Source: a virus
Strand: one strand, 5' to 3'
DNA length: 64,000 nt
Virus record (IMG/VR): IMGVR_UViG_3300031715_000003
Location: 1-64,000 of that record
Under the pieces are notes generated by a model. That model did no database searches, had not been told where the DNA came from, and saw only the letters and a program-made list of their open reading frames with translations. The number at the start of each line of letters is the position of its first letter. Position 1 is the first letter of the stretch. Position numbers and translations under genes: made by a program. Positions 17,773 to 61,604 of the stretch are shown here, piece by piece.

Positions 17773-19293
17773 CTATGCGGGGAACTCGCGGACGCGGAGA
17801 TTGCTCGGAAAATCTTCTATGTGGCCGCCCTTGCTGTCACTCATGATCCACGGATCTTCTCCGTCAAAACAGTTGGAGCCGCCCTGTTTCATGAAAAAGC
17901 TGGTACCTGCGGTGCGGCATTGATCGCGCACGGCCTCGGCCCATTCCCAATGGAAAGGGCGAGCGCCGGGCCCGCTCTCCCCTCCTACGATTACTTGCGA
18001 AATTCCGCGCAGGTCCAATTCGCCGATGTCCTCCAATAGCGGCTCAATCGAAAGGAATCGGATGGCGGCTGGGGTCTCCCGAAGTACATCAATGCGATCC
18101 TTGCGCGCTTGATCCTCCACGGAGCACCCCGCCCAGCAATTTACGAGCGGCCATTCTATCGGCGCGTCCATATTGCCTTGACGTCCCCGTGCGATATTCC
18201 TAACCTGCGTCGCAGAGACTCCAAAATGATGGGCCAGGGCTTCGCCAGTCTCTCCTCGGGAATGCCTGCGCCTGATCTCGGATACGTCACTCTCGGTTAG
18301 TTTCGAATAGCGGCGATGGTTTCCGTGGCGTTTACTGTCCTCCCAGTTATCGCCTTGAGTACCCCAGCGCAAATTGGCGATGTGGTTATTGGTAGCGTTG
18401 CCGTCCCTATGGCAACCCTGCTCCTCGGCGACGGCAGGCCGATCAAATGCAGTTAGAACCAATCGATGAACCAGTTCTCTATACTGAACGCCATCCTTGT
18501 AAAGCATAACCCTCTGATGGCCCTGATCGCCCTCGTCGGGCGACATTCGTACCAACTTACCAGCAAATCGTGGTTCGTGCCCGACGCGCCGGTGATAGCA
18601 AGCGTTTTGCTTACATTGCTTGCTGCAGTATGATTTAGTTGCGATTCCATCGACTGGCTTACCGCAATATAAACATTCGGAACTGCCATGAGAACTAAGC
18701 ACAAATCCAAGGTTCGAAATGAAATATCCAGGATAGGATTCGATTGGCCTAATCTCTTCCGTTACATGCGTCATTTCCTGAGCGACAGATACGACATCCA
18801 TCTGCTTGGCGATTCTAAAAGGCGTGCGGACCTCTGAGCAATATGTCAGCATCCTACCGGGCCGCTTTGTTAGCACTTGAAACGTGTGCTGAGGACATAG
18901 CGCCATAACCGCGAAAATCCGGTCTATCGCTTCATCTGGCAGCGCTTCGTGGAATAGATCCGACATCGAATTGACGAAGATGCGGCAGGGCTTGCACCAG
19001 TGAAGCGGTTCCATGAGCTTGGATTCGATCAGTTCTACTTTGCCTGTCCACTGAGGATGACCGTTGGCGATGCGGACAAAGCCGTTGAACTTTCCAGCCT
19101 TCTGGATCTTCCCAAATAAATCACCATCTCCTGGGGGTTCGTAATCTGGGGCTTGTGAAAAGCGCGCTGCGATGCGTTCTGCATAACAGTGAACGCAGCC
19201 GGGAGAAACTCGGCTACAACCACGGGTCGGGTTCCACGTTTTACCTTCCGACCCATCTTCCCCGCGCGTCCATTCGATGCTAGTCTTTCCCAT
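17773..19293 (-). CDS. Phage Gp37/Gp68 (DUF5131) protein carrying an in-frame HNH endonuclease
   Basis: IEWT..TWNPTRGCSRVSPGCVHCYA, FVNSMSDLFH, LTKRP, RFLSIEPLL, VIVGGESG.GARP, FFMKQ. Confidence 0.88.
   Translation of the reverse strand: MGKTSIEWTRGEDGSEGKTWNPTRGCSRVSPGCVHCYAERIAARFSQAPDYEPPGDGDLFGKIQKAGKFNGFVRIANGHPQWTGKVELIESKLMEPLHWCKPCRIFVNSMSDLFHEALPDEAIDRIFAVMALCPQHTFQVLTKRPGRMLTYCSEVRTPFRIAKQMDVVSVAQEMTHVTEEIRPIESYPGYFISNLGFVLSSHGSSECLYCGKPVDGIATKSYCSKQCKQNACYHRRVGHEPRFAGKLVRMSPDEGDQGHQRVMLYKDGVQYRELVHRLVLTAFDRPAVAEEQGCHRDGNATNNHIANLRWGTQGDNWEDSKRHGNHRRYSKLTESDVSEIRRRHSRGETGEALAHHFGVSATQVRNIARGRQGNMDAPIEWPLVNCWAGCSVEDQARKDRIDVLRETPAAIRFLSIEPLLEDIGELDLRGISQVIVGGESGPGARPFHWEWAEAVRDQCRTAGTSFFMKQGGSNCFDGEDPWIMSDSKGGHIEDFPSNLRVREFPA
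18170..18760 (-). mobile_element. NUMOD4-HNH-HTH homing endonuclease region inserted in frame (approximate bounds)
   Basis: EEIRPIESYPGYFISNLG (NUMOD4), VHRLVLTAF..CHRDGNATNNHIANLRWGT..DN (HNH) and KLTESDV..LAHHFGVS (HTH). Confidence 0.8.
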
Positions 19294-31297: not shown

Positions 31298-31939
31298 TCA
31301 CCCGATTGTCAGGAGTGCGGGATTCAGTACGCCGCCGCTTTCGTTGGCCTTCTCTCCCTCTGTTCCGATCTGGGTCTTTAAGTTGTGCCAACGACGAAGG
31401 GCTTCCCCATGAATCCAACATTTTGCCAGCATTGCGACAGCGGCCCCGAACATAAATCCGGTGATACCCTCGTCGTCCGCAATGTGCGATGCGTCGTTCG
31501 CACAATTCTCCAAAGTGTCGCCGTTGGAGATTCTCGCTTCCATTAAGCGCGCCCATTTATCGGCGTAGCGAACCACTCCAGATCCGTAAGGATCGGTGTT
31601 TTTGGCGACCCAGGAAGCCCATAATTCGGGATCGCGCAACGTCAACGTGCCCGGTGCTGTCAATAGCGCTCCTTTTAAAGCGGCATCCTTGCGGCGCTGG
31701 TCCTCCTCATACTGGCGCTGTTGCTCTGCGTATTCCGGCGAAGCCAACCATTTCTGGTGGCGTGTGTCGGACTCAGAGTCGTAAAAATTGACGATCTTGT
31801 CCACGGTATCACCGGGCCAAGCTGTCAGTTCTATATCATTGAATTTAGTGGTGACGGCGCTTTTGGACTCATCCGCAAGCGCGATTATGGCTTCGGCGCA
31901 TTCGCGTATATGCTGGCCTGCCTTTGATTCGTAAGTCAT
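31298..31939 (-). CDS. Hypothetical phage protein
   Basis: AAGGAG SD; 213 aa; DDEGITGFMFGAAV..L..CW.HGE.LRRWHN. Confidence 0.65.
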   Translation of the reverse strand: MTYESKAGQHIRECAEAIIALADESKSAVTTKFNDIELTAWPGDTVDKIVNFYDSESDTRHQKWLASPEYAEQQRQYEEDQRRKDAALKGALLTAPGTLTLRDPELWASWVAKNTDPYGSGVVRYADKWARLMEARISNGDTLENCANDASHIADDEGITGFMFGAAVAMLAKCWIHGEALRRWHNLKTQIGTEGEKANESGGVLNPALLTIG

Positions 31940-32153: not shown

Positions 32154-32567
32154 TCATAGTTTCCCTCCTTTCCGCAGGTTTAGTGCGAATCGAGCGCGCT
32201 TGCCGATTGCGCCGGGGAGTTTGGCCGCGGCGCGAAGTTTTCGTGCGGGGAGTTCGCTTCCGGCCGGAACTCCCAAATCGCGATGAAGCTGGCCCGGCGT
32301 CAACTTCGACGAAGCAACCTTGCGGAGCCACTCGCGCGCTACTTCGGACTCCTCGGAGCCGTCATCGTAACCGACTCGCCTGAAGACGTTCGCGCTTGCG
32401 AACCCACCGTACATGCGCGCATTCCACGCGGTGACTGCGGCCTTGGGTGTGGCCGCCACAATCATGGCGGGGCATCCCGAGCACCTGACTCCACCACAGG
32501 TCGCGACGCTGCGGATACGTTTGGCCTCACTGCCGCAAAACGGACACGGCAGAAGTTTGGTCTTCAT
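32154..32567 (-). CDS. Lar-like (restriction alleviation) zinc domain fused to a basic domain homologous to ORF 48926-49108
   Basis: LLPCPFCGS...VRCSGC...AAVTAWNAR, then GQLHRDLGVP.G..LPARKL.AAAK..G.IGKRAR.A. Confidence 0.65.
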   Translation of the reverse strand: MKTKLLPCPFCGSEAKRIRSVATCGGVRCSGCPAMIVAATPKAAVTAWNARMYGGFASANVFRRVGYDDGSEESEVAREWLRKVASSKLTPGQLHRDLGVPAGSELPARKLRAAAKLPGAIGKRARFALNLRKGGKL

Positions 32568-32787
32568 CGTTCTACCCTCCTTGCCGTGCGTTCCCGCCGG
32601 CGCGCAGCGGCGGCGTTCTCCGCGCCCAGCTTCCACAGTTGGTCATACGTTGCGGTGTAGGAATGCCTGGTTCCTTTGAGCCTGATGGTGATGTAGGTGG
32701 CGGCCAGCTCGATTACGATGGGTCGTATCTTGCCGCGCTCCCGCACCGATTGCAGCGTTTCGCGTTTGATGGGCTTGAGTGTGGTGG

Positions 32788-36325: not shown

Positions 36326-36362
36326 AGATAAGATACCGCTTTTTTATCCGCAGTGTCAAGAT
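36326..36362 (-). promoter_or_regulatory. Early promoter copy 1
   Basis: TTGACA-18-TATCTT with spacer GCGGATAAAAAAGCG and an A/T-rich UP tract. Confidence 0.8.
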
Positions 36363-36429: not shown

Positions 36430-37044
36430 ATGTTGGTAGCACCAGAAAACGGGCGCATTCGAGGCAAGCGAGACATCCTCAGCAACCCAGAGCGGAAATT
36501 CGCGGATGCCATTGCTCAGGGCAAATCGAAAGAGGACGCCCTCGCAGCCGCTGGCTACAGTTCCAAGTGCGGTAAATCCCAAGCCTGGAAACTCCTTTCG
36601 CGCAAGCGCGTGATCGACCGCATTGCGGAAACCAACATCGAAATTGCCCGCCAAGTGGCCGTCTACAGCGCGCGCTCCCTTAGCGAGATCCCAAACTTGG
36701 CTGAAGTCACCCTGAATAGAACCCGTATCGTGTCTTTCCTTGTGGTGGTGGCTCAGGAAGCAAGAAAAGCCGGGCAGTATGCATCAGCGATAACTGGAAT
36801 GGTTCAAGCGGCTAAAGTTTCTGGCGCTTATGTTGAGCGAACAGAGCAAGCTGTTGAGTTTCAACTGCTTGAGAAGGCAGCGGCGGGCAACATGAGCGAG
36901 TTGACGGATGATCAGGTGGAGCGGATGACGCGGGCGCTGGAAGTGATGGCGTGGGGCTCGGATAGAGCACGCATCGAAGCCGAAAGACGGAAACAAGGCA
37001 TCATAGAAGCCAGCGCGGAAGCCGTTGAAACGAAAGATAGTTAG
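36430..37044 (+). CDS. terS: Terminase small subunit
   Basis: LSNPERKFA...G.S..DA..AAGYS....QAWKLL...V..RI N-terminal HTH, and ELTDDQV in the C-terminus. Confidence 0.7.
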   Translation: MLVAPENGRIRGKRDILSNPERKFADAIAQGKSKEDALAAAGYSSKCGKSQAWKLLSRKRVIDRIAETNIEIARQVAVYSARSLSEIPNLAEVTLNRTRIVSFLVVVAQEARKAGQYASAITGMVQAAKVSGAYVERTEQAVEFQLLEKAAAGNMSELTDDQVERMTRALEVMAWGSDRARIEAERRKQGIIEASAEAVETKDS

Positions 37045-37455
37045 ATTTCCTACGAACAATTACCTTATTTCCTTGTATAATAGGCTGCATGAGAAGCCAT
37101 TTGTTACAAGAAACTCTGCCAGAGATCAAGAAGCGCGGACGCCCACAGCGTATTGTTCGATGCGACTGTGGCGACCGAATGCCCTCGTTCGAGTTCCAGC
37201 ACCACTATTCAGGCTGCGATGCGTTCTGGAAAAAGCACGGCGCCGTGGAGACGGATCAGGATATTTCGGTTCGTTGTTACGTGAAGCACGGAGTCAGCCT
37301 GATGAAGTGGTGCGAGGAGAACGTTGAAGGCTGGTCCAGCGCCTCATGGCAGGAGAAAGAGGAGGTTCTGGAAGCTGAGCACGCGCGGATCGATGAGATT
37401 CAGTTCTCGTTGTGAGCCGGCTTGGATCGCGCGGCGGGCCTGGCTTCCGGCTTCG

Positions 37456-37523
37456 GCCCCTCCCTTCCTTCCCGACCACCCCACCCCACAGTACCCTCGC
37501 CCCCCCCACCCCCCACCCCCCCC
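37456..37523. other. C-rich tract (G-quadruplex-capable on the - strand)
   Basis: Successive C runs of 3-8 nt in non-coding DNA after terS. Confidence 0.6.
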
Positions 37524-37604
37524 TTCGATTTAATTCACCGATCAGCACGAAGTTGATTCTGGAAAGAAGGCCACCGGCCTAAGAATCAACGATATAAAAT
37601 ATAG

Positions 37605-37634
37605 TTGACACCGTGCTCAGTGCCGATGTAAACT
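37605..37634 (+). promoter_or_regulatory. Rightward sigma70-like promoter
   Basis: TTGACA-18-TAAACT, with ATG 7 nt downstream (leaderless). Confidence 0.7.
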
Positions 37635-37641
37635 TAACGCA

Positions 37642-38205
37642 ATGGAACGGAAGAGATATTGGGCGCATGTGGATGGAGCGGGGCAAGCGGGTACGGAGTT
37701 GATCACTTCAGGGTGGGGCGAATGGATGCCGGAGGCTGGCGACATCTTCACGATCGATGGAGTCTATGGAGTGAATCCTGATGGCGAAAGCTGGACAGGA
37801 CGGCTCCAGTATTTTGCGATGCAGGAAAGTCCGAAGAAACTAGCCACTAATGGTAATGCGGTTTTGACCATCGCGCCCGCGATCATCCCAAGTGGGAAGT
37901 TCAGGACGGTAACGAACTCGCCGGCGAACGGGGCACGGATTCAACCGGTTGATCCTATACTCTTTGGAAGCGACCTCCCTAAGGGGAGAACGGTTTTGAA
38001 GACTAAGGAATTGAAGGAGTTAAGGAAAGCGCTGTCACAACAGCACGGGGCGATGGCCAAGATTGCTAGGTCGCTTGGGATCTCGAGGACGGCTGTATCG
38101 TTGGTGCTGAATGGGGTGAGCAAGAGCGAGAGGGTGTTGAAGGCTTGTAAGGCAGCGGTGAGGGGAGAACGCTTTGGAAACCAAGGTCCGCGGGTGGATA
38201 ATTAA
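37642..38205 (+). CDS. Coat-protein I-domain-like module fused to a Cro/XRE-like HTH
   Basis: The N-terminal half aligns with the coat segment AGQ.G...GD....GVY.VNP...TG.LQ.F...I.P.II..G...TVTNSPANGA. The C-terminal half reads MAKIARSLGISRTAVSLVLNG. Confidence 0.8.
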   Translation: MERKRYWAHVDGAGQAGTELITSGWGEWMPEAGDIFTIDGVYGVNPDGESWTGRLQYFAMQESPKKLATNGNAVLTIAPAIIPSGKFRTVTNSPANGARIQPVDPILFGSDLPKGRTVLKTKELKELRKALSQQHGAMAKIARSLGISRTAVSLVLNGVSKSERVLKACKAAVRGERFGNQGPRVDN

Positions 38206-38725
38206 GAACCGGTCGGATGGAACTGGATCGGCGAAGTTCAGTGAGTGCGAGCGCTATCGCTACACTCTGACCAGGAGTTTTGCGCCTGGGATAGTGATGC
38301 CGCGGCACGTGAACTTCATTATGCTGAACCCGTCGACCGCCGACCATAACCAGAACGATCCGACGGTGGAGCGGTGCGAGCGCCGGGCACGCGCTTGGAG
38401 ATTTGACGGGCTGACGGTGACGAATCTATTCGCGTGGAGGGCGACCGATCCGTCTGAACTACTCAAAGTGGCGGATCCCGTCGGGCCAGACAACGATTGG
38501 AATTTAGTGCACGAGGCCAAAATGGGAGCTGATTTAGTCGTATGCGGATGGGGCGGAAATAGCCGGTTCACACGCAACAGAGCCATCCATGTCGTTAGTC
38601 TCCTGTTGAATGCGGCCGTGCCGCTGACGTATTTGCGACTGTCGCAGAGGACTGGACAGCCTTGTCATCCTCTTTACTTGCCGTACTCCGAGTTGCCTAA
38701 AGTCTGGTGGGACGAGCGCGTCTAG
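38174..38725 (+). CDS. DUF1643 family protein
   Basis: AKFSECERYRYTLTR, FIMLNPSTAD..NDPTV.RC, NLFAWRATDP, CGWG, HPLY. Confidence 0.85.
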   Translation: METKVRGWIIKNRSDGTGSAKFSECERYRYTLTRSFAPGIVMPRHVNFIMLNPSTADHNQNDPTVERCERRARAWRFDGLTVTNLFAWRATDPSELLKVADPVGPDNDWNLVHEAKMGADLVVCGWGGNSRFTRNRAIHVVSLLLNAAVPLTYLRLSQRTGQPCHPLYLPYSELPKVWWDERV

Positions 38726-39245
38726 GGAGAACGGATTTGGCGAACAACCGGCTTCATTTCACTTTGCGGCTCATTGGCGCTATTATGGCGGGCGGCATCA
38801 CGGGAGTGGTGTTGGGCTGGCTGACCTATCGAAACTGAGGGGAGAACGATAGCGAAATGATCAAAAAAATGGAACAAGCGGACGGGCAGAGTTGCTGGAA
38901 TAAGGCTCATGAGGAAGAAATGGTTTTCGTGCTGCTCGAGCGCGATCTAGCCGCCCCCTATGCGATACGGGAGTGGGCCAAGAAGCGGATAGAACTTGGC
39001 AAGAACACCACGGACGATCATCAGATCAAAGAGGCGTTGGGCGCCGCGCTCTTCATGGAGAGACGAGATAAATCCGCAGAACTTTTGCCGAACGAGGCAA
39101 AACGACATACTTGGGAGTATGTCCATATGTCCGACGGACGGCGCGTCAAAAGATGCAGCCTCTGCTGGTGCGCCTACGAGTTTGGATACGACTTGCCCTG
39201 TACAGCAAAGCCGAAAGAGCTGCTTAGGGAGAATGAACCAGGCTG

Positions 39246-44092: not shown

Positions 44093-44362
44093 TCTGGCAA
44101 AACTGGGTTGGTCTTGGAATTGAGGCGGTGTGCGTAATGCTATTCCTCTGGAAAGAGGAAGATGGCGGGAAGCGAATTTTTTCCCTACTGCTGAACATCA
44201 TTATTGCCGCTATGCTTTTGTGGAGATGAAGCCAATGGACATACCGGAACGTTGTAAGTTATGCGGCTGCAAACTAACTTTGGTGCAGGAGCATGCGGTA
44301 GATTTCGAATGCGGATCCAGATTCTACCGGGAAACGGGAAACTGGTACCGTGGTACTTCCTC

Positions 44363-44908
44363 ATGAGCCTAAAGTACCGGGAGTCCATCGTCGACCTCCA
44401 CCAGGAACTCAAGTTCCCCATCGAGCAACTCAAACTGCAGAAGGATCGCGTCATTATCCGCGACCTCCAGGAAGAAGAAAAAGTCGGCTCGATCTGGATT
44501 CCCGAAGTCAGCCGTGACCAGTCGCGATTGCGCTGGGGCATCGTGGTGGCGGTTGGGCCGGGCGAAACATACATTGAGCGCGTCATTAGCCGCTACACCA
44601 CGACTCCTGATGGATATCCAGAGACCCATAGAATCCCCATCATGTGCAGCAAATGCAGGGGAGGACGCTTTGTGCGGATTCCGCCACGTCAAAGTCAGCA
44701 GGGCCTGGAACCGGGAGCCAGCCTCCCCTGCGAAAAGTGCCGGGGTACCGGTCGTGGGCGTCTTCCCCTGGACGTAAAGGTGGGGGACAAGGTACTGTAC
44801 GACCGGCGCAGGGAAGCCGAGTTCTTCTGGCAAGGACAGCGCTACAACATCGTGTACGAGGAACAAGCGATAATAGGAATCTATACGGGGAGTTCGGATG
44901 GCGGTTAA
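44363..44908 (+). CDS. groES: GroES/cpn10 co-chaperonin with a zinc-finger insertion
   Basis: DRVII....EEKVGSIWIP, GIVVAVGPG, PLDVKVGDKVLY, GQRY.IV.E..IIGI. Confidence 0.85.
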   Translation: MSLKYRESIVDLHQELKFPIEQLKLQKDRVIIRDLQEEEKVGSIWIPEVSRDQSRLRWGIVVAVGPGETYIERVISRYTTTPDGYPETHRIPIMCSKCRGGRFVRIPPRQSQQGLEPGASLPCEKCRGTGRGRLPLDVKVGDKVLYDRRREAEFFWQGQRYNIVYEEQAIIGIYTGSSDGG

Positions 44909-49337: not shown

Positions 49338-50906
49338 GTGGCAGCCCTCAACCAAGAATCCGTAGAGAAGAGCGCGAGCGCATTCCAAGCGGAACTAGCG
49401 CGGCGCCGGGAATCTCGCCCTGAGAACCTCACCCGCTTCAAGGAAGACCCACTGGGCTTTATCCGGTGGGATTTCCCATGGGGGAGACCTGGGCCGCTCG
49501 AACGGTTCGAAGGCCCCGACGTATGGCAGGTGGACTTCCTCACGGAACTGGGGGAACTCATTCGGAAGCGCGAGTTCGACGGAGTCAACTCTGTTGCGCC
49601 CATCAGGATGACGCGCACTGCTGGCAAGGGCGTGGGGAAGTCGGTAATGGCCGCCTTCCTCACCAGTTTCCTTTTGAAGTGTTGGAAACTCTCCAAGGGG
49701 ACCGTCACGGCCAACACCTACGTCCAACTTGAAACCAAGACGTGGGCGACCATCAGCCAGTGGCTCAGAATGTCGCGATCGTCCTCCCCCTTTGAAATTC
49801 GCGACTCCGGCGTCTACCACAGAGTGGAGCGCAAGGCGTGGTCTTGCACTCCCCAGACATCGGACGAAAAGAACAAGGAAGCGTTCGCCGGCCAGCACGC
49901 CGCCACCTCAGTACAGTACTACATTTTTGATGAGTCCTCGGCCATAGCCGATACCATCTTCAAGGAAGCCGAGCGCGGACTTGTGGATGGTATGCCCATG
50001 ATATTCGTGTTTGGGAACCCGACCAAATCCACCGGTACGTTCTTCCGTATCAATTTCGGAGACGAGAAGGAACGATGGAACCACGGCATCATCGATTCCC
50101 GAACCTGTAAGATTCCCAACAAACAGGAACTCGAAGACACCATCAGGCTGGCCCCGGGCGGGGAGGACGATGACGACGTCCGCGTCTATATCCGCGGACT
50201 TCCGCCATTGTCGAACCCATCGATGCAGGTCATCGATCCTCAGCGAGTCTACGACGCGCAGAAACGGACTCCCGAAGTCCTGGATGACGAACCGCTAGTG
50301 GCGGGCGTCGACCTGTCGCGCGGCGGCGGCGACCCGGCCGTCGTCCGCTTCCGCCGTGGCAATGACGCGCGTAGCATTGCGCCTCGAAAGCTTTCTCCCC
50401 AGGAGACGCGCGATTCCATGCAGGTGGTAGGGTACTTGTCTGATTTGGCGAAGCATTCCTTTGGGGGGAGGAAGGTGGCGGCGTTCTTTATTGACGGGGG
50501 CTCCATGGGCGGCCCCATCATTGATCGTCTGCACCAGCTCGGGCTGAATCAATTCATCGAAGTGCAGTTCGGAGGCGGAGCCCCGCAGCCGGATCGCTAC
50601 GCAAACATGCGGGCCTGGATGTGGTTTCAATTGGCTGAGGCGCTGGGGAGTCGGCTCGCGATTGACAAGGACCCCGTTCTGGAATTGGACTTGACGTCAG
50701 TGGCACCAGGCAGGCGCGACAAAAAGAACCGATTTGTTTTGGAATCGAAGGAATCTATGAAAGCGCGGGGATTGGCCTCCCCCAATGACGGTGATGCGCT
50801 GGCCCTCACTTACGCGCGGACGGTAGGACCGCAGCGCCCAGAGCGCATTCCACCGAAAAGGAACTACAACATCAAGCCCGAGGCTGGTTCCTGGATGGGG
50901 CTATAA
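49338..50906 (+). CDS. terL: Terminase large subunit
   Basis: AGKGVGKS (Walker A), YYIFDES (Walker B), FGNPT, and nuclease motifs AGVDLSRGG, FIDGG and SPNDGDALALT. Confidence 0.92.
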   Translation: MAALNQESVEKSASAFQAELARRRESRPENLTRFKEDPLGFIRWDFPWGRPGPLERFEGPDVWQVDFLTELGELIRKREFDGVNSVAPIRMTRTAGKGVGKSVMAAFLTSFLLKCWKLSKGTVTANTYVQLETKTWATISQWLRMSRSSSPFEIRDSGVYHRVERKAWSCTPQTSDEKNKEAFAGQHAATSVQYYIFDESSAIADTIFKEAERGLVDGMPMIFVFGNPTKSTGTFFRINFGDEKERWNHGIIDSRTCKIPNKQELEDTIRLAPGGEDDDDVRVYIRGLPPLSNPSMQVIDPQRVYDAQKRTPEVLDDEPLVAGVDLSRGGGDPAVVRFRRGNDARSIAPRKLSPQETRDSMQVVGYLSDLAKHSFGGRKVAAFFIDGGSMGGPIIDRLHQLGLNQFIEVQFGGGAPQPDRYANMRAWMWFQLAEALGSRLAIDKDPVLELDLTSVAPGRRDKKNRFVLESKESMKARGLASPNDGDALALTYARTVGPQRPERIPPKRNYNIKPEAGSWMGL

Positions 50907-52323: not shown

Positions 52324-52620
52324 ATGATAACGCGAAGAGGACTGATTGCGGCAATCGCGGCGGTGTTTCTGCCGAGCCGCAAGCGTACTCCCCCAAATAC
52401 GCTGTACTGGCGAAAGCCTATCCTGGTCCCCGTTACCCACGGCGACTGGCCATGGCTACAGCCGGTTTCAGAGCCAGAACTGGAGACTGAATCTGTCTGC
52501 CTTCTCACAAACCGCGCCATCGTCGGAGAAATGCTCGATGTCCTTCATCGGGACATAGTGATAGCCAAAAAGGTAAATCGCAGGTACGAACAGAGATTAG
52601 GAGCATCATGGCCAAGTTAA
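52324..52620 (+). CDS. Tat-like leader fused to a coat N-arm-like segment
   Basis: MITRRGLIAAIAA...LLTNRAIVGEMLDVLHRDIVIAKKVNRRYE compared with coat FLTIGMVTYEMLMVLHNLVVAAKKANRNYE. Confidence 0.7.
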   Translation: MITRRGLIAAIAAVFLPSRKRTPPNTLYWRKPILVPVTHGDWPWLQPVSEPELETESVCLLTNRAIVGEMLDVLHRDIVIAKKVNRRYEQRLGASWPS

Positions 52621-57664: not shown

Positions 57665-58930
57665 ATGGCAATCAGAATGGACTCGAACACTCAAGAGGAT
57701 TTTCAGCAGGTCATCAAGCACTACGGGTTGGAAAACCTACCCGAAGCGCAGGCGGCTTCCGAAGAGACTCCAGTGTCGGAACCACCCTCCGAATCCAAGG
57801 AAGAGCCTGGCGGGGAACCCGCTGGGGAGCCCAAGGATAAAAGCGCGGCCCCTCCGGAGGAGGTCAAAACAGAAACAACGCAGGAGGCTCCTCCTGTAGG
57901 GGAAACCGAAGACGAAAAGAAGAGAAAGAGTGGATGGGCCCGCAAGGTCGAGAAACTAACGGCCCAAGTAGATGCGATTCGTGAGCAACTAGAGAGCGAA
58001 CGCGGCAACTCCCGTGGCCTCCAGGAACGCCTGGAGGAAGCGGAGCGACGACTTGCGGATGCGACGGGATCAGAACCGGAGCCTGAGGTAGAACAGGGCC
58101 CGGTTCGTCCCAAGCGTCCCAAGACGCCGACCCTGGCAGAGCACGACGGCGATTACGAGAAGTGGAGTGCGGCTATGGTGCAGCACGATGTCCTCCTCGA
58201 CAAATACGAGGAGGAGATGGAGCAGTACCGCACGCAAGTCACGGAACGGGCGATCGCTGAAAATAGTGCCAGGGCCGAACAACAACTCCGGGAAAACGAA
58301 ATTGTCCGCAGTTTCGTGGATCGCCGGGATGCCGGAAAGAAGATTCTGGCCGAATCCTTGGATTCCGAGGAAGTCTCATGGGCCGAACTATTCGGGGATG
58401 GCAACGGCAATCCCGGGATTGTCCGCGACAGCTTCATGGACGCTCCTGCCGACAATCCGCAAGGTGGTGCGGCGGCGGCCAGGGACTGGATCAATCGCAA
58501 ATCCAAGAATCCGGCTCTTTTGCTCTATCACTTCGGTCTTGATTCCATACACAGCGGCGCGGAGAACCAGCGCTTCCGCGATATGGATGCCTTCGATCAA
58601 ATCGTCGAACTCAAGGCGCTAGATGAGCGTTTGGGAGCGGAAATTGCGGCCAAGAAAAACGGCCGCACTGAAGCAGCCCCACCGCCAAGACAAGAGCGTA
58701 CTCCCCAGCAGGAACCTCCCGCAAGAACACAACCACGTCCCGCCCACAGGGTACCGGAACCTCCGATCCCAACCGTCGGTGGCCACTCCATACGAGCGAC
58801 CGCCGATTCAACGGCTCAACTGGCCAGACTCTACGAGGAAGGCCGTAAGACCGGGGATATGAGTGCCTACCGGCAAGCGCGGGAACAGCAGAGAGCTGCT
58901 GAAGTCGCGGCGGGGAGGATACGCCCTTAA
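57665..58930 (+). CDS. Scaffolding protein
   Basis: Acidic disordered N-terminus, coiled coil and PEPPIPTVGG near the C-terminus; lies between portal and coat. Confidence 0.75.
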   Translation: MAIRMDSNTQEDFQQVIKHYGLENLPEAQAASEETPVSEPPSESKEEPGGEPAGEPKDKSAAPPEEVKTETTQEAPPVGETEDEKKRKSGWARKVEKLTAQVDAIREQLESERGNSRGLQERLEEAERRLADATGSEPEPEVEQGPVRPKRPKTPTLAEHDGDYEKWSAAMVQHDVLLDKYEEEMEQYRTQVTERAIAENSARAEQQLRENEIVRSFVDRRDAGKKILAESLDSEEVSWAELFGDGNGNPGIVRDSFMDAPADNPQGGAAAARDWINRKSKNPALLLYHFGLDSIHSGAENQRFRDMDAFDQIVELKALDERLGAEIAAKKNGRTEAAPPPRQERTPQQEPPARTQPRPAHRVPEPPIPTVGGHSIRATADSTAQLARLYEEGRKTGDMSAYRQAREQQRAAEVAAGRIRP

Positions 58931-58956: not shown

Positions 58957-60207
58957 GTGGCTAATTCATTTCTCACCATCGGCATGGTCACATACGAAAT
59001 GCTGATGGTGCTTCACAACCTTGTGGTGGCGGCCAAGAAAGCGAACCGCAACTACGAGAAACAATTCGCGCGAGTGGGCGCCAAGATCGGACAACAGGTC
59101 CAGATCCGCAAGCCCCCGCTCTACACCGTCACGGATGGTCCTACGTTTGTCGCGCAGGATTACGCCGAAACCAGCGTCCCCTTGACGCTCAACAAGCACA
59201 AACAGGTGGGCGTTGAGTTCCTCAATGATGACCTCGTGCTCAGCATGGACGATTTCCGTGGTAGATTCCTCGAGCCCGCCATCGTTCCCCTTGCGAACAT
59301 TGTCGACACCGACATCATGTCGCTCTACACCATGGCTTGGGAATTCACCGGCACCCCCGGCGTCACCCCGGCCCAAGACCTGCCGTTCCTAGACGCCAAA
59401 ACCCTGATAACGGCCAATGCCGCCGGCGGAAGAATGTGGCCCATGATCGTCAGTTTGACCACTGACGCTCGCCTGTCCAGCGGCCTGGCTGGACGCTTCA
59501 ACCCCCAAAAGGACATCTCGGGTCTGTACCTTGAAGGTTCGATGGGGCCCGCTCTGGGATGGGACTTCTACAAGACTCAGAACGTCCAGATCTTCACCAC
59601 CGGAGCATGGTCGGCCAGCGTCCCTGCGACCGGCATCACGGTGAATCTCGCCGGACAAACCGGTTCCACCATCAACGTGACTGGGGCGACCGCTGGTGTC
59701 AACAACATCGGTCTCCTCGGCGATATCGTCCAGTTCGCTGGTGTCTACAAGGTCAACCCCGTAACGTACCTCAACACCGGGTTGCTCCAAAACTTCGTCC
59801 TCACGGCCAACGTAAATTCGGACGGCGGTGGCAACATCGCGCTCCCCATCAGCCCCCCGATCATCATCGTGGGCAAGGGCCAGACCGTAACGAACTCCCC
59901 GGCCAATGGCGCGCAGGTGCTGGTGTGGGGGAATCAGAACGTCGCGCAGGTGGCCAGCGTCACCTCCGCTCAGTGCATGGGATGGGCCTCGGAAGCCGTC
60001 ACCATGGCGATGGCCGATCTCAAGGTCTTCGGTGAAGGCGAGGGCGTAAAGTGCACCCGCATGGCCGACGACGATCTCGGGATGAGCGTGCTGTATACAC
60101 GCGGAGTGGACATTCGCGAATTCTCCGAGATTTCGCGCATGGACATCCTCTACGGCATGACCATGCCTCGTCCGGAACACGCCGTCAGGGTGGCGGCGAT
60201 GTCGTAA
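58957..60207 (+). CDS. Major capsid protein, P22 gp5-like
   Basis: MANSFLT, KIGQQVQIRKP, DLVLSMDDF..RFLEPA..LAN.VD, I-domain GVYKVNP and RMDILYG....RPE.A.R. Confidence 0.93.
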   Translation: MANSFLTIGMVTYEMLMVLHNLVVAAKKANRNYEKQFARVGAKIGQQVQIRKPPLYTVTDGPTFVAQDYAETSVPLTLNKHKQVGVEFLNDDLVLSMDDFRGRFLEPAIVPLANIVDTDIMSLYTMAWEFTGTPGVTPAQDLPFLDAKTLITANAAGGRMWPMIVSLTTDARLSSGLAGRFNPQKDISGLYLEGSMGPALGWDFYKTQNVQIFTTGAWSASVPATGITVNLAGQTGSTINVTGATAGVNNIGLLGDIVQFAGVYKVNPVTYLNTGLLQNFVLTANVNSDGGGNIALPISPPIIIVGKGQTVTNSPANGAQVLVWGNQNVAQVASVTSAQCMGWASEAVTMAMADLKVFGEGEGVKCTRMADDDLGMSVLYTRGVDIREFSEISRMDILYGMTMPRPEHAVRVAAMS

Positions 60208-60240: not shown

Positions 60241-61110
60241 ATGAAAACCTTTAGACTGATCGCTCTCTTGTCTCTGGCCAGCGCCATTGGCTCTGCCCAA
60301 TTGAACGTGACATCGACCACGCTCGCGGCTGCCGTTACGTCGGCCAGTTGTCCGGCGGCTGGCTGCACCGTGACGCTTACCAGCGCCACTGGTGTCGTGG
60401 CCCAAGGTCCCAACAACCAAATCAATACCGTGCTCTACGTGGATCGCGAACTGATGTGGGTCACCAACTTCATCAGCGGCACCACTTACGGAGTGCAACG
60501 CGGCAAAAACCAAACGCGCCCGTGGACTCACTCCAGTGGCGCGACCGTCTACCTCGGACCTCCCACCAACAACTTCCTCGCTAACAATGGGACTTCGGCG
60601 GAGACTTGGGGGAGTTGCGTGGCGACCAACGAATACAGTCTCCCCAAGATCTATGTCACAACCGGAGACATCTTCCAGTGCTACAACGGTGCGAATGGAG
60701 GGAATTGGTTCTTGGTCGGGAGTGGCACCGGGGTGACGGTAGGGAAGTCTCTTTCGGCCTTCTGCACCGGAACGGTCGGTAGCGCCGAGACTGAATTCCT
60801 CAACGACGCGGCCTGCTCTGGAGCCACCGCAAACCTCGCGAAAAACGTAGTCGTAACCGGTGGAACGCTGGCAAACCTTAGGGTTTACAGCACTGCGGTC
60901 GCCGTCGGAGGAACCAACAAGGACGTGATGACCGTTTTCAAGAACGGCAGCGCCACCACCATCACCTGTACGATTGCGGCTTCGGCCGCGACGTGCTCTG
61001 ACTCGGGTCATTCCGTCATGACGGTACCGGGTGACGTCATATCGTTCCAATTCGTGACCGCCACTTCCGATACCGCCGCCAATATGGTGGCCTCAGTCGG
61101 TCTGTACTGA
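60241..61110 (+). CDS. Putative virion decoration protein with a signal peptide
   Basis: MKTFRLIALLSLASAIGSA; TTLAAAVT..LYVDRELM..VQRG..T....H.SGATV; directly after the coat gene. Confidence 0.6.
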   Translation: MKTFRLIALLSLASAIGSAQLNVTSTTLAAAVTSASCPAAGCTVTLTSATGVVAQGPNNQINTVLYVDRELMWVTNFISGTTYGVQRGKNQTRPWTHSSGATVYLGPPTNNFLANNGTSAETWGSCVATNEYSLPKIYVTTGDIFQCYNGANGGNWFLVGSGTGVTVGKSLSAFCTGTVGSAETEFLNDAACSGATANLAKNVVVTGGTLANLRVYSTAVAVGGTNKDVMTVFKNGSATTITCTIAASAATCSDSGHSVMTVPGDVISFQFVTATSDTAANMVASVGLY

Positions 61111-61169: not shown

Positions 61170-61604
61170 ATGAAAATGCTGATGCGAATCTGGTGCGGTG
61201 CGTTGCTGGCCTTCATGTTATTTGTAGTGGGGGTATCGGCCGAGCCGCAGCAGGGCAGGATCATCACCATCACGGCGGGAACGGCCATCAGGCTGATTCT
61301 TAACCCCACCACCGTCAAGCCGGTGCTGGCCAACTCCATGCTGATCCAGGTGCAGCATGCAGGAAGTGGCCTCGTTTATGTCCTCAACGCCAACCCGCAG
61401 CAAACATGCGCCCTGGGGAATGCTACGACGACGGAGGTGGCGGAACTGGCCCCAGCTACATCGACAGAGCCCGGGGGATCATTCACGTTCCCTAGCAATG
61501 GGTCGGCAACCACCGGTTCCAGCGGGTTCGATGTCCGGTACTGGTGCGTCGATGGATCCAACAGCGGCGACACCGTGATTGTGTCGTGGGATGTAAGGAA
61601 TTGA
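61170..61604 (+). CDS. Beta-rich protein with a signal peptide in the head module
   Basis: MKMLMRIWCGALLAFMLFVVGVSA. Confidence 0.6.
   Translation: MKMLMRIWCGALLAFMLFVVGVSAEPQQGRIITITAGTAIRLILNPTTVKPVLANSMLIQVQHAGSGLVYVLNANPQQTCALGNATTTEVAELAPATSTEPGGSFTFPSNGSATTGSSGFDVRYWCVDGSNSGDTVIVSWDVRN

Follow-up and report, generated by a model that had tools for sequence, protein, structure and literature searches.

The insertion domain (I-domain) of P22-type coat proteins is a textbook accessory domain inserted in the HK97 capsid fold. The locus described here holds a relative of this domain outside the coat gene of a phage, in an open reading frame (ORF) that continues into a predicted helix-turn-helix (HTH) fold. 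The phage is uncultured; its IMG/VR entry of 94,224 bp is judged to be 98% complete, and the window analysed in this work is the first 64 kb (64,000 nucleotides) of that entry.

The coat I-domain and its counterpart outside the coat gene

The phage encodes a P22-type portal (PF16510, E 2e-138), a large terminase (terL, 49338-50906), a scaffold (57665-58930) and a P22-type coat protein of 416 aa (58957-60207; PF11651 P22_CoatProtein, E 6e-21; phrog_283, E 5e-61). It has no close relative in IMG/VR, where the best coat match is 40% identical. Genes are directed leftward up to ~36300 and rightward from 36430. The ORF of interest (37642-38205 (+)), which opens at the first start codon that follows a stop, comes third in the rightward arm; it has the same direction as the structural genes, lies ~11 kb upstream of terL, is preceded by a gene at 36430-37044 (+) and then by a 108-aa ORF, and is followed by a DUF1643-family gene. 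Its 187-aa product (P0001) comprises an I-domain-like barrel, a linker and an HTH segment.

An initial annotation had aligned residues ~10-100 of this product with the phage's own coat on the strength of four motif pairs. The alignment is real and all four pairs are present: by BLASTP, P0001 residues 10-100 and coat residues 229-321 are identical at 39 of 94 positions (41%; E 2e-13), and the same pair was recovered by a six-frame search of the genome itself. The corresponding coat DNA, the paralogous segment, lies at 59641-59919 (+) within the coat gene. Coat residues 236-300 match the Sf6 I-domain (6mpo), which identifies the coat segment as the I-domain, and P0001 matches the CUS-3 I-domain (6mnt) weakly at the sequence level. 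A phmmer search with P0001 yielded 329 matches in 1.8 billion representatives, nearly all the full-length ones aligning at coat residues 225-320. Identity of the barrel to several coats of other phages is 47-51%, as against 41-43% to the coat encoded by the same genome. No other coat segment was found in the ORF, and P0001 gives no match to PF11651.

The likeness extends to the predicted fold. In the AlphaFold2 model, obtained with an input alignment of 63 relatives, residues 8-102 (37663-37947 (+)) form a six-stranded beta-barrel at pLDDT 90-98. With this predicted model as query, the first-ranked Foldseek match in the PDB is the CUS-3 I-domain 6mnt (E 1.9e-4; TM 0.60 normalised by target), with coat chains of P22, CUS-3 and Sf6 ranking next; in BFVD, Gp5 major capsid proteins head the list along with I-domain constructs. 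All the family-wide conserved residues are kept in the barrel (G12, Q15, G33, F58, P79, G85, V90 and P94). Modelling and structural comparison thus support an I-domain-like fold of the P22 type for the N-terminal half of P0001, rather than a different one. Among the other Foldseek matches to this type of barrel are the T5 Dit protein pb9, tailspike N-terminal barrel modules and F1-ATPase subunits (N-terminal barrel); phrog_1302 ('distal tail protein') gives weak matches to both the coat I-domain and P0001. However, pb9 and the tailspike barrels resemble P0001 in fold only, at 10-19% identity, which is far weaker than the match to coats.

In P22, the I-domain comprises residues 222-345 and is inserted in the A-domain; it makes inter-subunit contacts, and salt bridges involve its D-loop (239-254), e.g. 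E81-K249 (PMC9965877). The barrel of P0001 is like the I-domains of P22-type coats (PF11651; P22 gp5 222-345; PDB 2m5s, 6mnt, 6mpo) in sequence, in its predicted six-stranded fold and in its conserved core residues. In contrast to them, it does not interrupt a coat of HK97 fold, it lacks N-arm, P-, E- and A-domain elements, and it measures ~95 aa where the P22 domain has 124. Its gene is also 21 kb away from that of the coat, in an early or middle region, and an HTH comes after the barrel.

A search of the genome with the whole coat returned three places, namely the coat gene, the barrel ORF and a gene at 52324-52620 (+). The latter (98 aa; E 7e-7) encodes a Tat-like leader (MITRRGLIAAIAA...) and a C-terminal helix that is 50% identical to residues 5-42 of the coat N-arm. 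The phage therefore keeps two different coat-related pieces as separate small genes. As for the I-domain, a second copy is rare: of 25 IMG/VR records whose coats are related (completeness 90% or more in 11), each was matched by the barrel sequence at a single place, its coat gene, and by tblastn the nine GenBank phages with a match likewise had one place each.

Free-standing I-domain proteins and the age of the copy

The best 150 of the 329 phmmer matches include about a dozen complete small proteins, with a Met start and 108-159 aa in length, that consist of the barrel alone. Those devoid of a leader (P0074, P0090, P0095, P0138, P0150 and P0046) span 108-127 aa. In the remaining six (P0008, P0054, P0064, P0097, P0107 and P0109), the barrel is preceded by a Tat-like leader made of RR-x-F-L/I, a hydrophobic stretch and then small residues, a theme that is found alike in the 52324-52620 product. 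The contigs that encode them are all metagenomic and short and show hardly any gene context. The P0090 cluster has six members of identical size and at least 94% identity to P0090, from three sources. At locus L012, the only one with a free-standing gene in a metagenome scan with P0154, the gene of this cluster forms a complete ORF with an ATG that overlaps the preceding ORF's stop codon; ORFs that look HNH-like and vWA-like by eye lie before it. The AlphaFold2 model of P0090 (pLDDT 87.5, pTM 0.81) matches the P22 and CUS-3 coats and the CUS-3 I-domain. The ends of P0097 and P0107 resemble coat C-termini (CRIVG / CRVLG), as if an N-terminal leader, the I-domain and the last coat strand had been joined.

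The free-standing proteins and P0001 have in common the start Y-W-x-x-V-D-G-A-x-Q and the motif I-x-P-x-I-I-P-S-G-x-aromatic. The I-I-P-S-G-x-aromatic part is also present in some coats, and a search of IMG/VR DNA for IIPxGxYxNV gave only coats and chance matches, so the motif does not mark out the free-standing proteins. Of the two ends of a complete small ORF, the barrel of P0001 has the start (ATG 37642, with homology from residue 5); an in-frame stop is absent, and a TAA is found one base out of frame where the stop would be expected. P0001 differs from the set in two respects, as none of the free-standing proteins has an HTH, and the export leader carried by half of them is absent from P0001. 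Such leaders do not fit a role of the family as a whole in reading capsid assembly in the cytoplasm.

A rare and unnamed gene family of predicted free-standing I-domain proteins therefore exists, and no report of I-domain homologues outside coat proteins was found in the searchable literature, in which coverage of I-domain papers is incomplete. With about twelve metagenomic relatives, the locus of P0001 shows that the barrel also occurs as a gene product in its own right. This makes the origin of the I-domain a testable question, namely whether a free gene was captured by the coat or the domain was released from it: free-standing genes could be the source of the insertion domain of P22-type coats, or they could reflect recurrent export from coat genes. 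The family stands as a finding even if the fusion were to be a one-base artefact, and the novelty of the locus likely lies in this family and in its joining to a regulator here, more than in a sensor or decoy function.

The barrel copy is not young. At the DNA level, the barrel and the coat segment of the same phage differ with dN 0.61-0.69 and a saturated dS of 1.2-1.9, and 22 of the 39 identical residues are encoded by a different codon (17 by the same one). Decay of the I-domain part, with a dN/dS near 1, had been named in the initial annotation as something that would speak against its reading, and it is not borne out. This pattern, the retention of all the conserved residues and the confident fold point to purifying selection instead, and they argue for a copy that is both old and constrained. 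A recent duplication of the phage's own coat is ruled out by the saturated dS and by an identity no higher than that to foreign coats. Tree building is less decisive: FastTree groups the barrel with the free-standing proteins; in IQ-TREE, where many branches are long and this grouping is not statistically resolved, P0008 is nearest by tree path; and a clade of the barrel and the phage's own coat is not rejected by the AU test (p = 0.117). The barrel may derive from an old duplication of the coat I-domain within the genome.

The HTH segment, the junction and the upstream signals

The C-terminus had been described as a Cro-like HTH, and such a domain is indeed present, with weak sequence support. 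It occupies residues 119-187 (37996-38205 (+)), where AlphaFold2 predicts helices at 121-133, 137-145, 149-156 and 163-173 with pLDDT 70-78, followed by a disordered tail (174-187). The recognition stretch IARSLGISRTAVSLVLNG, within the helical region 121-173, resembles FruR/LacI. The best HTH profile match is phrog_925 'HTH DNA binding protein' (E 3.9e-5), and the segment falls below every curated family cut-off tested: in Pfam, it reaches 18.6 bits for HTH_8 (cut-off 22), 15.1 for HTH_3 (cut-off 23) and 11.2 for LacI (cut-off 27), and for TIGR04111 it scores 20.5 (E 3.3e-4) against a cut-off of 34. No close sequence relatives of the segment were found. Its structural look-alikes in the Atlas are HTH proteins (TM 0.53-0.67); the proteins it resembles are stand-alone ones of ~68-74 aa from phages and Acidobacteriota, and Bro-N, KilA-N and AntA proteins in their C-terminal domains. 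Taken as a whole, the predicted helix-turn-helix fold is real, albeit weak in sequence matches.

With small phage regulators of the Cro/CII/LacI type, P0001 has in common a helical HTH of ~60 aa; with Bro-N, KilA-N and AntA proteins, it has in common a layout in which the N-terminal module varies and the HTH stands at the C-terminus. What sets P0001 apart from all of these is that its N-terminal partner is a capsid-derived barrel; no report of such a barrel as a partner in the Bro-N, KilA-N, AntA or small HTH families was found in the searchable literature.

The two halves are connected by a linker (residues 103-118, 37948-37995 (+)) that is modelled as disordered, with residues 109-116 at pLDDT under 50, and that holds signals resembling those of a gene boundary (37980-37998 (+)). 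These are a TAA in frame +2 (37980-37982), the motif GGGGAGAAC (37983-37991) and an in-frame TTG (37996-37998, codon 119), so that the internal Shine-Dalgarno sequence and the TTG that had been proposed as a start for the HTH alone are both in place. The gap between GGGGAGAAC and the TTG is 4 nt, or 7 nt when counted from the GGAG core, the latter distance being 6 nt at the start of the DUF1643 gene. Strong ribosome-binding sites of this phage have the common context GG(G)GAGAA(C), which is found before the coat gene, before 38857, before the gene at 17773-19293(-) and before the DUF1643 gene, and more loosely before the portal gene. A second copy of GGGGAGAAC at 38162-38170 precedes the TTG of the DUF1643 gene, and the HTH-coding segment is flanked by two direct copies of GGGGAGAACG-N-TTT. 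On these grounds, an HTH-only product of 69 aa initiated at the internal TTG is plausible.

In the frame of the out-of-frame TAA there is a TGA at 37950, and one extra base anywhere in 37951-37979 would consequently turn the locus into a barrel ORF ending at 113 aa and a 69-aa HTH gene with a normal start, sizes that fit the free-standing relatives of each half. The same order of stop, motif and start is seen at nearby true junctions, at 38723-38740 (TAG 38723) and 38836-38859 (TGA 38836). From this gene-boundary layout, the halves probably were two genes until a short time ago, if they are not so still. Across both strands of the window there are 43 copies of the motif GGGAGAAC (e.g. 37983, 38162, 38724, 38839, 19303(-), 35882(-) and 61152(-)), not all of them at gene starts; true ribosome-binding sites are among them, as are hairpin arms (35882, 50977, 61152), and other copies are neither. 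At 38159, a TGA directly ahead of the motif is out of frame with the ORF crossing it, and the TAA may thus be the usual context of the motif and not a former stop. As read from the DNA, the in-frame state reflects either a true fusion, probably of recent date, or an error or variant of a single base.

How widespread the fused architecture is was addressed by several searches, including one for the same arrangement in related phages, and no second case was found. Among 1.84 billion representatives, no protein has both halves, matches covering either residues 10-100 or 117-174; no homologue of the whole fusion was retrieved by a near-length search of 5.8 billion proteins, nor from IMG/VR, from GenBank phages (tblastn) or among short HTH relatives. 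Loci neighbouring DUF1643 genes gave the same outcome, none of 44 having an I-domain or this HTH nearby. The barrel-HTH architecture is, on the sequences at hand, real in the record and unique, and, being a singleton, it provides nothing to show that selection maintains the fused state. An identical 187-aa protein has been recorded by JGI/IMG and by ENA, on two contigs of different size (the longest of 94,252 bp). This argues mildly against a chance assembly slip; both contigs may derive from the same reads.

At the level of expression, the ORF had been credited with a consensus promoter of its own. A promoter-like site, TTGACA-18 nt-TAAACT, does exist at 37605-37634 (+); with 10 of 12 matches it is a good site rather than a consensus one, and an imperfect palindrome (37609-37622) lies between its -35 and -10. 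The predicted +1 (37641/37642) coincides with the A of the ATG and no Shine-Dalgarno sequence is found in the 30 nt before ATG 37642, so the mRNA is probably leaderless. By rough arithmetic, sites of the type TTGAC-N17-19-TANNNT are near chance in number (9 seen, ~6 expected) and the class is not enriched; similar promoter-like sites lie at sensible intergenic places at 36359 (leftward) and 41130. Just upstream of the promoter-like site there is a C-rich, G-poor tract of ~90 nt (~37440-37530 (+); G-rich on the other strand) that may function in Rho utilisation or form a G-quadruplex. Between the two, at 37552-37590 (+), a perfect 9-bp inverted repeat, GTTGATTCT ... AGAATCAAC, encloses an inner GGCC-ACC-GGCC stem. 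The predicted hairpin (-15.5 kcal/mol, z = -3.25) lacks a U-run; as a pair the repeat occurs nowhere else, and no enrichment of its half-site is seen in the window. The element may act as an operator or in the manner of a terminator. Together, the tract and the hairpin could insulate the gene from upstream transcription. At the other end, the TTG start of the DUF1643-family gene (38174-38725 (+); PF07799, E 2e-36; phrog_3230), which has its own GGGGAGAAC, falls within the barrel-HTH ORF, so that the two share 32 nt (38174-38205), and the residues encoded there belong to the tail (174-187) that is modelled as disordered.

Possible roles of the proposed composite gene

We give about an even chance to the reading that P0001 is the product of a composite gene, in which a paralogue of the coat I-domain has been joined to an HTH and that acts as a DNA-binding regulator equipped with a protein-contact module. 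According to this account, the first 110 residues would be a free-standing cytoplasmic paralogue of the coat I-domain that folds on its own, and the last 69 a Cro/CII/LacI-like HTH of a kind that is usually a phage protein of ~70 aa. Two neighbouring small genes would most likely have been joined in frame, because the junction still has a ribosome-binding motif and a TTG start. The promoter-like site would give rise to a leaderless mRNA and to the 187-aa barrel-HTH protein, and the internal TTG would probably yield, in addition, the 69-aa HTH-only protein, which could modulate the full-length one. The product would regulate, through DNA binding, the rightward early/middle gene arm, and the barrel would serve in self-association or in the binding of a partner, and not as part of the capsid. 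What favours a regulator with a protein-contact module is the combination of an HTH of the small-regulator type with a capsid-derived barrel that is predicted to fold independently.

An alternative takes the locus as two genes, a 113-aa I-domain protein and a 69-aa Cro-like HTH, that act separately and appear fused owing to a one-base indel, be it an error or a variant in the population. Such a layout is what the TAA directly before GGGGAGAAC and the TTG would predict, as at the true junctions 38723-38740 and 38836-38859; the split matches the sizes of the leaderless I-domain proteins (108-127 aa) and of the HTH look-alikes (~68-74 aa), and protein searches (5.8 billion and 1.8 billion) retrieved no fused homologue. 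However, the same 187-aa protein is recorded at JGI/IMG and ENA, although possibly from the same reads, the TAA could be motif context like the out-of-frame TGA at 38159, and indel errors would be rare per site if the record is a short-read assembly. We regard this account as possible, if on the unlikely side. A further idea, that the open frame is the decaying remnant of a second coat, open by chance, could appeal to the presence of two separate coat-derived pieces in the genome; yet the barrel is exactly domain-sized and confidently folded, its gene has its own start signals, all the family-wide conserved residues are kept and many changes at conserved residues are synonymous. With its conserved residues, fold and dN/dS pattern against it, a remnant is hardly probable at all and was rejected.

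The initial annotation had proposed more specific roles, a regulator that reads capsid assembly or a superinfecting phage's coat, or an early decoy for capsid-sensing immunity. In the most novel form of these, the barrel would keep properties of capsid contact and transcription would be coupled to assembly by titration onto the coat or procapsids of the phage itself or of a rival; alternatively, the protein would be an early coat mimic that counters capsid-sensing defence. We give this a small chance. P0001 is nonetheless a specific candidate for a module that comes from a capsid and has found a new use, in regulation or in conflict with the host. P22 itself couples scaffold synthesis to assembly, a precedent for a regulator whose barrel would dock on the coat or procapsids of its own phage or of a co-infecting relative, moving the HTH off or onto DNA. 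The gene is co-directional with the structural genes and ~11 kb upstream of terL, and the barrel derives from a capsid surface domain that makes inter-subunit contacts in P22 (PMC9965877). An assembly sensor is improbable, however: the coat has its own I-domain, which leaves no obvious free docking site; export leaders are found on half of the free-standing relatives; the barrel resembles foreign coats at least as closely as that of its own phage; and the fusion is unique. Defence proteins that bind major capsid proteins directly, such as CapRel SJ46, are known (PMC9712102), and a coat look-alike expressed early could occupy a host system of this sort before the real coat appears. A decoy would be in keeping with the promoter-like site of the gene and with the neighbouring leftward early arm, where anti-defence genes are found, a Tad4-like Thoeris inhibitor (31298-31939 (-); PF25186, E 2e-31) and a Lar-type restriction-alleviation protein (32154-32636 (-); PF14354, E 1e-8). 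It is nevertheless quite improbable, there being no link between I-domains and any known sensor and no obvious purpose for the HTH in a decoy. The export leaders of the relatives, the singleton fusion and the gene-boundary junction favour a plainer account over both sensor and decoy.

Several other genes of the phage deserve mention. The 204-aa product of 36430-37044 (+), the gene that heads the rightward arm 12 kb upstream of terL, matches small-terminase HTH regions with its N-terminus (phrog_641, E 2e-8) and has no relative in IMG/VR. At 44261-44908 (+), a GroES/Cpn10-like domain (PF00166, E 1e-11) lies within a 215-aa phage protein. Directly after the coat gene, the products of 60241-61110 and 61170-61604 (+) begin with leaders like Sec-type signal peptides (MKTFRLIALLSLASAIGSAQ... 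and MKMLMRIWCGALLAFMLFVVGVSAEPQ..., respectively).
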